From a virus (taxonomy: Duplodnaviria; Heunggongvirae; Uroviricota; Caudoviricetes): a stretch of DNA of 4,057 bases. Below are positions 1 through 3,000 of this stretch, piece after piece. The stretch's first letter is position 1, and each line of letters begins with the position of its first letter. A program made the position numbers. Location of the stretch: the IMG/VR virus record IMGVR_UViG_2537561716_000007; one strand, written 5' to 3'.

Positions 1-3000
1 AGTAGCCAGCCCGAGGCGTAAGAACATGACGGCAGGGTTCAACTTTAATAACTATGCAGCAGGTTTTTGTTCCGCTACCCCGGCGTTAAGGGGAAATGAG
101 GTCAACATGGATACGCTCAATCTTGGCAACAACGAATCTCTGGTATGTGGCGTGTTCCCCAACCAGGACGGTACGTTCACCGCGATGACGTATACCAAAA
201 GCAAAACGTTTAAAACTGAAGCTGGCGCGCGTCGCTGGTTAGCCAGAAACACTGACTGATGAGGTTGACGATGGAATTTAAAGATTTACCTCCTTCAATC
301 CAGGAGATTGCAGCACACACACTTCGTCATCGTCTGAACGAACTTGAATTGGAATCGGTAACGAAAAAAGACACTGATAATATGGCTCGTAATGTGCGCG
401 ATGCGTTTACCGGATTGTATTTCTGTGCGTCTATAAATAAACACGACTCAGAGAGTGTGGCAAATAAAATTGCAGAAACGACAGCGCAAAACATCAATAC
501 GAAACCAACGGAAGAAGAAATTGATCAGTTTGCTCATGATGCTGGTTTAAAAAACAAGAAAGAAAAATCGCCATATGCGGGGAACATGTTTGTTTATGAC
601 AATCTCATCAGAATTCGTGGCGAAATTCCGGCGGAATACCTGGCAAGAGTCCATCAGGCATTGCTTAAAAATTTGGAAACAGAATTATTTGATGGCAACA
701 CTAACGGTTTCTTCATGGTATCAGGCCTTGAGAAAGACTGGGATGCAGAAAAACGCTGGAATGTTGCTACATGGTTATTCAGTAACAGAGCCGCTGCACT
801 GGAAGCTTCGGCATGTATTTGCGGCCTGTTCTTAACAGACCACAAATATAATCTGGATGTGTACAGTTATATTTACGCTGAACACGGTCCACTCTGGATT
901 GACTGGTAATTATAAGGAAACACCAGCAGGGCCGCGGCGACCAACAGAACGATTAAAATCAATAATGCCATTATAAAGGACATTATTTAATTTATCGTCG
1001 AATGCTGATTCTGTGAGCCTCAACTCTGAATGAGTTTTTAATAACCCTGATTGCCTGAGTTGATTTACCAGGCATTCAATCTGTTTTTCAATAAGCGGAT
1101 TTCTTTTTTTGTTTGGCATTTTATCCTCCATTGAGGTTCTGGGTTAAAAATGGAGACCAACACGCTGTCACGTGTGGTCGTGCGCCGGACACGGATAAGA
1201 ATCCGGTACTGACAGTTTACTGAAAGGATATTTCCCTGAAAAGTCAGTGCATAACGCGAAAGCGTACGGCGAAGCTCTTTCCCTTAGAAGGCTTGTCGTT
1301 AGATTTCTTCGAACGTGCGCTTCCGGTTGTGGCACTCCGCGAAATGGCGCGGCGGTAAGTATGGCGGGGTTATTCCTTCCCCGTTGAGGACACCGGGTTG
1401 TCAGGTTGACCATACGCTTAAGTGACAACCCCGCTGCAACGCCCTCTGTTATCAATTTTCTGGTGACGTTTGGCGGCATCTGTTTGCCCATGAACTGATG
1501 TCCGCCCTTTTTAAAGTGAATTTTGTGATGCAGTGAATGCGGCTAAGCGCACGCGGAACAGTTAAAGCTAAAAACAGTGTTATGGGTGGATTCTCTGTAT
1601 CCGGCGTTAATTGTTAACTGGTTAACGTCACCTGGAGGCACCAGGCACTGCATCACAAAATTCATTGTTGAGGACGCGATAATGGAAACGTTATTACCAA
1701 ACGTTAATACGTCTGAAGGTTGTTTTGATATTGGTGTTCTGCTCAGTAATAAAGCGTTTACTGAGGATGCCATTAACATGAGGAAATATGAGCCTTATCT
1801 GCTCAATGATAATTCCATTCTTTCCCGAATTGCCCTTATTAAACTTGGTATTTTCGGAGAACGTCAATGACTTCAGCATTTGCACTGGTGATGACGGTTT
1901 TTCTTATAACGGGTGAATCACAGAATGTGATTACCGGAATTTATGCCAGTAAAGAATCCTGCCTCCAGGCAAGAGACGAGCAAAAAATTTCTGGTGAATG
2001 CCTCCCGGTAAAAAAAGTATCGCTGTACCTGAATAACGAAACACCGGCTGGATAACCCTCCAGCCATATTAACACCATACCAACGGATTAAAAATGCCAG
2101 CAATGGCAGGGATTTGTTCACCCTTAAATCTGTAATGAGGTTTATCAATGAGCACTGATAAAGAAGAATTTGCGCTATATTGCGAAGCAAAAAATGACAA
2201 AGTCAGAAAACGTCTGGGAATTAAAGGTGGTTTTTACTGGACTACAGCAAAAAAATTATCTGTTGCCATCTCCCGCTGCATTACCGCAATGGATGACAAC
2301 GATTATGATGAAGACGACTTTAAAAAACCCGTTCGCGTCCATTTACCCGTTGTGAATGACCTTCCACCTGAAGGCGTGTTTGATACCGAATTCTGCAACC
2401 GATACGAAAAAGGCGGGGAAGATGGCATTACAATGGTATTTATCGCGCCCTCTCCCTCCGTGCAGGAGAAACCAGCCAGTACTGACAATACCAACGTCAA
2501 CGGCGAAGACATGACGGAGATTGAGGAGAATATGCTCCTGCCGGTTTCTGGTCAGGAGCTGCCCATTCGCTGGCTTGCGCAACACGGCAGCGAAAAACCA
2601 GTAACGCACGTTGCACGGGAAGAACTTCAGGCATTACATATAGCACGGGCGGAAGAACTGCCGGCTGTTACTGCCCTGGCCATTTCTCACAAAACAAAGC
2701 TGCTCGACCCGCTGGAGATTCGCGACCTTCACAAACTGGTACGCGACACTGACAAAGTTTTCCCTAATCCCGGTAATTCAGACCTGGGACTGATAACTGC
2801 TTTTTTCGAGGCATACCTGGACGCTGACTACACTGATCGGGGTCTGCTGACAAAAGAGTGGATGAAAGGAAATCGTGTTTCGCGTATCACCCGTACGGCT
2901 TCCGGTGCAAATGCCGGTGGCGGGAACAAAACCGATCGCAATCCGAATTTAGTACACACCTTCGATACGCTGGATGTGGAGATTGCAGCAGCCACACTTC

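Follow-up and report, generated by a model that had tools for sequence, protein, structure and literature searches.

A YdfD-like protein of the O157 type behind DicB in a defective Qin-like prophage of Escherichia coli, and its probable soluble fold

Family identity, gene arrangement and proposed role

We analysed a stretch of 4,057 bp of prophage DNA (IMG/VR record IMGVR_UViG_2537561716_000007; the whole stretch is called the window here) and focused on an open reading frame (ORF) on its plus strand at 1867..2055, which comprises 62 codons followed by TAA. The results demonstrated that this ORF is a real member of the DUF1482/YdfD family; the gene was already annotated and the family is known. 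The explanation that we favour as a whole, with confidence slightly above even, is that the ORF is an O157-type ydfD, whose product would be a soluble cytoplasmic domain, translated behind the division inhibitor DicB and capable of division-dependent lysis via IspG. Family membership, gene arrangement, conservation and the lack of a segment of transmembrane (TM) length were obtained in this analysis, and the data on lysis, on its suppression by DicB or SulA and on IspG binding come from the literature on the K-12 homologue only.

The 62-amino-acid (aa) product (MTSAFALVMTVFLITGESQNVITGIYASKESCLQARDEQKISGECLPVKKVSLYLNNETPAG) matched Pfam PF07358 (DUF1482) with 59.7 bits against a cut-off of 25, over profile positions 1-57 of 57, and matched phrog_1092 over its full length (E=4.7e-34). 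RefSeq annotates it as a DUF1482 family protein (WP_000199475.1), and no NCBIfam model matched. A profile search recovered 281 protein clusters from the Enterobacterales (Escherichia, Klebsiella, Enterobacter, Leclercia, Raoultella, Kosakonia, Lelliottia and Erwinia). The window protein has every one of the residues that an alignment of 40 diverse members showed to be invariant (L7, G16, C32, C45, P47 and P60) or near-invariant (F5, A6, Y26, E38, Q39, G43 and A61). A survey of 5426 complete E. coli genomes gave the full-length O157-type allele in 1015, with a maximum of four copies in one genome, and the allele also occurs in sequenced phage records such as Tritos and mEp460. Intactness in related loci, a point raised by a preliminary description of this DNA, was confirmed: the 62-codon ORF is uninterrupted in all 77 parsable IMG/VR copies of the allele type. 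Comparison of the window ydfD with K-12 ydfD gave 0.51 nonsynonymous (dN) and 1.39 synonymous (dS) substitutions per site, and the ratio of about 0.37 indicates purifying selection on a fast-evolving gene. The corresponding ratio among close alleles (pN/pS 0.41; 10 distinct alleles) did not separate the reading frames and was not used as coding evidence. A chance ORF was rejected on the basis of the Pfam and PHROG scores, the 281 clusters, the recurrence across genomes and the intact copies.

Some O157-type alleles start with GTG instead of ATG, giving a GTGA overlap with dicB (L327:701-889 and L328:701-, phages PPompW and 204576), and the copy in phage 204576 is shortened to 52 aa. Separately, a repeat protein of 1031 aa in the representative library (P0106) gave six matches to query residues 19-45 ('..GIFSSEEGCLNGWDD..'), which are probably a compositional or motif coincidence and not homology.

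The preliminary description had reported a small ORF with an uncharged hydrophobic N-terminus and two cysteines, and translation bore this out: residues 1-16 carry no charged side chain, and the protein has exactly two Cys, at residue 32 (nucleotides, nt, 1960-1962) and residue 45 (nt 1999-2001). Immediately upstream lies dicB (1682..1870, plus strand; Pfam PF05358 121 bits, NCBIfam 112 bits, and RefSeq), a cell-division inhibitor gene, and the two genes overlap in an ATGA at 1867..1870 (plus strand), where the ydfD start codon (1867-1869) meets the dicB TGA stop (1868-1870). A GGAG at 1856..1859 (plus strand), 7 nt before the ydfD ATG and within the 3' end of dicB, matches the Shine-Dalgarno consensus. 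The earlier statement that the gene is translationally coupled therefore stands as far as the overlap is concerned, but the coupling itself is something that this layout permits, and we infer it from the arrangement of the two genes.

On the favoured reading, ydfD would be transcribed from the DicA-repressed early-left (dicBF) operon, and since the dicB stop overlaps the ydfD start, YdfD would probably never be made without the division inhibitor. The protein would be a small soluble cytoplasmic domain in the order beta-hairpin, helix, strand, with Cys32 in the helix and Cys45 in strand 3. By homology with K-12 YdfD, an excess of the protein would lead to lysis that depends on cell division: as published for K-12, YdfD would bind the iron-sulphur enzyme IspG, and the isoprenoid (undecaprenyl-phosphate) carrier for wall synthesis would run short. 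Co-produced DicB would block septation and thereby mask lysis, and the overlap would serve as a safeguard that normally confines YdfD to cells unable to septate.

The experimental basis for this mechanism lies in K-12. Induction of K-12 ydfD lyses cells, and co-expression of DicB or SulA prevents the lysis (Masuda 2016, as relayed in PMC8835842 and PMC11430063); the toxicity was reproduced independently (PMC9782134). Lu et al. 2022 detected the YdfD-IspG interaction by pull-down, co-elution in size-exclusion chromatography, isothermal titration calorimetry (dissociation constant, Kd, 18 uM) and Förster resonance energy transfer, and reported that ispG overexpression or (E)-4-hydroxy-3-methylbut-2-enyl diphosphate (HMBPP) rescues YdfD killing (PMC8835842). 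The preliminary description had suggested a membrane-active toxin, and in these same sources the toxic half of that suggestion holds for the K-12 homologue, which lyses cells, but the published target is a cytoplasmic enzyme.

The hydrophobic N-terminus and the predicted fold

To describe the N-terminal segment, we measured the apolar run, defined as the longest stretch without K, R, D, E, Q, N, H or P. The run comprises 16 aa in the window protein, 14 in K-12 YdfD and 11 in YebW, a K-12 member of the family, with the invariant Gly and acidic residues next in the sequence. Apolar runs of 20 aa each were measured in two TM proteins used as controls, HokD and an 83-aa Klebsiella protein from a related locus. 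The Hessa sum over 19 residues was +5.9 to +7.5 kcal/mol for DUF1482 proteins (window protein: +5.96), compared with -4.7 kcal/mol for HokD and -2.6 kcal/mol for the Klebsiella protein. Similarly, the Kyte-Doolittle maximum over 19 residues was 1.43 for the window protein, compared with 3.07 for HokD and 2.61 for the Klebsiella protein. A single-pass anchor calls for an uninterrupted apolar segment of about 18-20 residues, and by these scales, which are crude and not a substitute for DeepTMHMM, the window protein has no such segment. In addition, K and R are absent from aligned positions 1-16 in 213 of 214 family sequences, which argues both against a Sec signal and against an anchor obeying the positive-inside rule.

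The window protein and a four-cysteine member of the family (P0167) were then modelled with AlphaFold2 (AF2) from an alignment of 40 sequences. Both models gave the same topology: a strand at residues 4/5-12, a turn at 13-17, a strand at 18-26, a helix at 29-38/39, a strand at 43/44-47/48 and a disordered tail. The mean predicted local distance difference test score was 78.7 for the window protein and 75.8 for P0167, with 78-84 in the hairpin block, which is moderate confidence. In neither model was the hydrophobic segment helical; AF2 places residues 5-12 of the window protein, and 4-12 of P0167, in a strand paired with residues 18-26. In the window, the predicted beta-hairpin (codons 5-26; strand 5-12, turn 13-17 with the invariant Gly16, strand 18-26) corresponds to 1879..1944 on the plus strand. 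A core defined by the AF2 model and the conserved columns (codons 29-47) occupies 1951..2007 on the same strand and consists of a predicted helix at residues 29-39, with Cys32, Glu38 and Gln39, and a predicted third strand at 44-47, with Cys45 and Pro47.

The family alignment provided a further line of evidence. Additional Cys residues at aligned positions 12 and 18 occur together in 37 of the 38 sequences that have either one, and in the AF2 model Cys12 is the last residue of strand 1 and Cys18 the first residue of strand 2. The four-cysteine subfamily is large and includes K-12 YebW; its members share 46-53% identity among themselves and are equally far from the two-cysteine members. This pairing argues against a single helix, in which residues i and i+6 are not brought together, and the retention of Cys12 argues against a cleaved signal peptide, which would discard it. 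Taken together with the crude scales and the model, these results suggest that the hydrophobic N-terminus is probably strand 1 in the sheet of a small soluble domain and not a membrane helix, and that the membrane-anchor picture of YdfD is probably wrong. We infer the soluble fold on this basis, and it agrees with K-12, where tagged YdfD was purified from a 15,000 g soluble supernatant without detergent. A non-membrane fold would also affect the way in which studies of the reported IspG interaction and of the invariant Cys pair are designed.

These results bear directly on a rival explanation in which YdfD is a bitopic membrane protein: its inner-membrane anchor would span residues 2-16, perhaps extending to about 26, and an envelope or septal process would be disturbed directly by the C-terminal domain, which would lie in the cytoplasm or, with a Cys32-Cys45 disulfide, in the periplasm. 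This explanation reportedly comes close to the 2016 proposal of Masuda. The strong hydrophobicity of the segment (15-residue Kyte-Doolittle mean 2.04; in K-12, a 19-residue maximum of 2.0 against the usual threshold of 1.6) and the lack of a polar face on strand 1 speak for it, division-dependent lysis would suit a septal or envelope target, and two invariant Cys would fit an oxidising compartment. However, an apolar run of just 11-16 aa that ends in a conserved Gly and acidic residues, Hessa sums of +5.9 to +7.5 kcal/mol, the absence of positive flanking charges, a predicted strand where a helix is called for, and Cys at i and i+6 that are hard to fit to one helix all count against it, as do the solubility of the K-12 protein without detergent and its binding to cytoplasmic IspG. 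We therefore consider a bitopic protein unlikely. The signal anchor or TM helix of the preliminary description is likewise not supported, given the run of 16 aa against 20, the Hessa sum of +5.96 against -2.6 and -4.7 kcal/mol, the AF2 strand, the Cys12/Cys18 pairing and the soluble K-12 protein.

A cleavable signal peptide is far less probable still. In that case residues 1-16 would be removed (ITG|ES in the window protein, VSG|EP in K-12), and the remaining peptide of about 46 aa would lie in the periplasm with a single disulfide. A hydrophobic region of 11-14 aa is typical of such peptides, the stretch FALVMTVFL is followed by I-T-G before E17 (V-S-G before E in K-12), small residues occupy -1 and -3 as judged by eye and not by SignalP, and two Cys lie in the 'mature' part. 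Against this, 213 of 214 family members lack Lys and Arg in the n-region, which also upholds the earlier remark that a segment without a basic n-region is no classic Sec signal; YebW begins at MFALV and has no n-region whatsoever; and cleavage in the four-cysteine subfamily would leave three Cys, yet Cys12 and Cys18 are kept together in 37 of 38 sequences. The K-12 data are equally hard to reconcile with export: N-terminally tagged YdfD still binds, changes at residue 2 affect killing, and the target reported for it is in the cytoplasm (PMC8835842). A lipoprotein signal was rejected by eye, as no lipobox precedes any Cys.

The two Cys had been singled out in the preliminary description as a possible periplasmic disulfide. 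Their importance is upheld by their invariance across the family, but the disulfide is unlikely because tagged K-12 YdfD was soluble without detergent and bound cytoplasmic IspG. In the same study, Cys mutants of K-12 YdfD still bound IspG (PMC8835842).

Allele classes, upstream partners and operon context

A full-length BLASTP alignment of the window protein with K-12 YdfD showed 47% identity. At the DNA level, comparison with K-12 Qin (L002) revealed 93-100% identity at about 1517-1716, covering the dicB leader and the first ~12 dicB codons, and only 33-78% identity at about 1720-2094, where the remainder of dicB, the whole ydfD gene and the first 3' hairpin lie; beside this divergent stretch, identity returns to 95% at 2096-2135. 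The divergent cassette (1720-2094) is thus sharply bounded and corresponds roughly to the C-terminal two-thirds of dicB plus the whole of ydfD. In a comparison of six loci from E. coli and phages, DicB (in its C-terminal part) and YdfD vary together in two linked allele classes, with between-class identities of 42% for DicB from residue 32 and 32-48% for YdfD. The window belongs to the non-K-12 class, and its YdfD ends in ...PAG, without the terminal Leu63 of K-12, a position that is not conserved in the 40-member family alignment. The window protein is therefore a divergent, uncharacterised allele, and the linked DicB/YdfD classes are a result worth keeping: the second class is present in O157 and in about a fifth of complete E. 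coli genomes, and results obtained in K-12 may not transfer to it.

Several points weigh against the reading of the window gene as a soluble, IspG-directed lysis protein. The transfer of function from K-12 to the O157-type allele is the weakest step, at 47% identity and without Leu63; in K-12, loss of one terminal residue abolishes killing, and deletion or mutation of Leu63 does the same (PMC8835842). The evidence for IspG comes from one study with a weak Kd, N-terminally tagged proteins and no enzyme assay, and a sticky hydrophobic hairpin fused to glutathione S-transferase could yield false pull-downs. For the fold, the AF2 confidence is moderate, the model and the Cys covariation are not fully independent because AF2 saw the same alignment, and the four-cysteine state may go back to a small number of events in evolution. 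Both faces of strand 1 are hydrophobic and cannot be buried in a 62-aa monomer, which implies contact with an oligomer, a membrane or a partner. A pair of invariant Cys is an unusual feature of a reduced cytoplasmic mini-protein, and one that this reading does not account for. In addition, Masuda et al. in 2016 reportedly proposed association with the cytoplasmic membrane.

To place the gene in its wider context, 317 parsed loci from IMG/VR and phage records were compared. In 304 of them, the stop of an upstream ORF and the start of DUF1482 share nucleotides: 4 nt (ATGA or GTGA) in 240 and 1 nt in 64. Partners were then tallied for 120 distinct DUF1482 proteins. The upstream partner is DicB for 9 of these and a member of the lambda-Kil family for 14 (Pfam PF06301, 43.9 and 33.4 bits against a cut-off of 27.6, and PHROG 'Kil' families). 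The phrog_22279 family (37-40 aa; pattern 'MIDFARKP..QQAVRL...CY.LAQKG') accounts for 53, as in L004:3891-4004 (37 aa) with DUF1482 at 4001-4192, and the phrog_3722 family (about 66 aa; pattern '..RTGAAWLVSF..YWHEPQGNLRHIRRPYA..LVPAGTH') for 38, as in L005:2801-3001 (66 aa) with DUF1482 at 3001-3198. An example with a Kil-like partner is L184:2223-2504 with DUF1482 at 2501-2698, where the order is CI-like repressor, unknown ORF, Kil-like ORF, DUF1482, unknown ORF and ExoX-like exonuclease. In a Klebsiella phage the order is helix-turn-helix protein, 83-aa ORF, 37-aa ORF, DUF1482 and recE/recT. An early-left layout, with a small overlapping ORF upstream and an exonuclease or recombination gene downstream, is found in the window, K-12, Tritos, the Klebsiella phage and L184, and this gene order indicates that DUF1482 belongs to the early-left operon and not to a lysis cassette. 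The 37-40-aa family was also considered as a remote Kil, which was rejected at an hhalign probability of 0.3%.

The recurrent arrangement of a small ORF overlapping ydfD, with DicB or Kil upstream, points to a functional pair and raises a further explanation: lysis could be an over-expression artefact, and the natural role of YdfD would be that of obligate partner to a phage division inhibitor, for instance in tuning the supply of envelope precursors in a filamenting infected or induced cell. We hold this as a tentative possibility, one compatible with the IspG mechanism. It accords with the position of the gene between immunity and recombination genes in the early-left operon, outside the late lysis cassette; with the overlap in 304 of 317 loci; with the fact that DicB and lambda-Kil are unrelated families both annotated as division or septation inhibitors; and with the suppression of lysis by DicB or SulA. 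However, the partner is mostly of unknown function (53 phrog_22279 and 38 phrog_3722 alleles), so that the term 'division inhibitor' holds for a minority only. Moreover, profiles showed no similarity between the 37-40-aa family and Kil, no partner is coupled to K-12 YebW, and genes of a mosaic phage operon can stay adjacent through linkage alone. Extended to the whole family, the same thought is equally speculative: YdfD proteins would be soluble mini-domains coupled to unrelated division inhibitors (DicB and lambda-Kil), phrog_22279 and phrog_3722 would be new division inhibitors, and YdfD would reshape envelope-precursor metabolism during filamentation, with lysis occurring only when it is uncoupled. 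It nominates phrog_22279 and phrog_3722 as candidate division inhibitors.

Superinfection exclusion is a common role of small prophage proteins, and the preliminary description had proposed it here. In that event YdfD would block the entry of other phages, as its neighbour DicB does in K-12 by blocking lambda entry through ManYZ (PMC6832061). However, deletion of K-12 ydfD altered only minimally the lambda-vir resistance conferred by the induced dicBF operon, and deletion of dicB abolished that resistance (PMC6832061). A PADLOC search with the ydfD-like protein gave no match. We consequently give the exclusion role almost no credence.

The remainder of the window agrees with this operon assignment. 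By megablast, the whole 4,057 bp fall within a defective lambdoid prophage in chromosomes of E. coli O157, to which they are 99.4-99.7% identical, and the gene order of K-12 Qin matches that of the window (dicF-dicB-ydfD-ydfE(recE)-intQ); the window is the dicBF operon of this defective, Qin-like O157 prophage. Upstream, a DUF1391 (ydfA-like) ORF lies at 26-259, followed by a 216-aa ORF at 259-909 on the plus strand (phrog_2151, no Pfam match) and by a convergent 73-aa ORF at 910-1131 on the minus strand (phrog_4274), whose stop abuts the 216-aa ORF. The latter two occupy the place of K-12 ydfB/ydfC and belong to conserved phage families without an assigned function. The small RNA (sRNA) DicF, in the same operon as ydfD, lies at 1458..1507 on the plus strand (Rfam RF00039, 43.5 bits against a gathering score of 48, E=2e-7) and aligns with K-12 dicF; its 3' part (about 1479-1516) has 65-75% identity to K-12 dicF, and this divergence together with the score below gathering indicates a variant DicF allele.

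The dicB leader (1505-1714) gave an Rfam STnc100 match of 36.1 bits, which falls short of the gathering score of 47. With 93-100% identity to K-12, the leader is conserved better than the coding sequence after it, and it could be a structured leader or sRNA; a 97-codon GTG-started ORF in frame with dicB also spans it. An antisense ORF of 90 aa lies opposite the ydfD region at 1918-2190. Downstream of ydfD, RNA folding (-24.8 kcal/mol, z=-3.5) and a terminator-like scan identified two hairpins in the 3' untranslated region at 2046..2119 on the plus strand. The first (2046-2065) carries the TAA stop in its loop, and the second (2095-2108; core TGCCAGCAATGGCA, GCAA loop) is kept in K-12 and is terminator-like on both strands. 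In K-12, a 1,608-nt ydfABC-dicFB-ydfD transcript ends after ydfD (PMC10448788), and the hairpins at 2046-2119 are likely the 3' end or a processing site of the dicBF-ydfD transcript. Further downstream, a 414-aa ORF at 2148-3392 is a recE fragment, with an Exonuc_VIII match at residues 57-189 only and a RefSeq annotation as a partial recE pseudogene, and it runs into a 5'-truncated tyrosine integrase at 3374-3925. The prophage is deleted between recE and int and is therefore defective.

Comparison with known systems

The closest known counterpart is K-12 Qin YdfD (b1576, 63 aa, 'lysis protein'), which resembles the window protein in Pfam family, in its position after dicB with an ATGA overlap, in its place before recE/ydfE and in length, and shares with it Gly16, Cys32, Cys45, Pro47 and the C-terminal P-A motif. 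It differs in being only 47% identical, in belonging to the other allele class and in having the terminal Leu63. YebW (K-12 b1837), an uncharacterised DUF1482 protein, has the family, the predicted core, Cys32 and Cys45 in common with the window protein, but it is of the four-cysteine type and starts at MFALV. Its gene (L326:4122-4313) is located between yebV (DUF1480) and pphA in the core chromosome, where no ORF overlaps it from upstream. It may be a domesticated copy.

Lu et al. draw a comparison between YdfD and the single-gene lysis (Sgl) proteins phiX174 E, Qbeta A2 and phage M LysM, which act on MraY, MurA and MurJ, respectively (PMC8835842). If the IspG mechanism holds, Sgl proteins and YdfD are alike as small phage proteins that lyse growing cells by blocking the supply of wall precursors and not by degrading the wall. 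However, Sgl genes are the lysis genes of small lytic phages with single-stranded DNA or RNA, whereas ydfD is an early-operon gene of temperate lambdoid phages equipped with a holin-endolysin cassette of their own. The phiX174 E protein needs a genuine TM domain, whereas YdfD has no segment of TM length. The proposed target, IspG, is cytoplasmic and acts upstream of lipid-carrier synthesis, and YdfD falls outside the known Sgl families. Toxins of the Hok/Gef type, represented in Qin by HokD, are likewise small, prophage-borne and toxic when over-expressed. However, HokD has an apolar TM run of 20 residues and a Hessa sum of -4.7 kcal/mol, compared with 16 residues and about +6.0 kcal/mol for the window protein, and Hok toxins are controlled by an antisense RNA and not by an overlapping upstream ORF.

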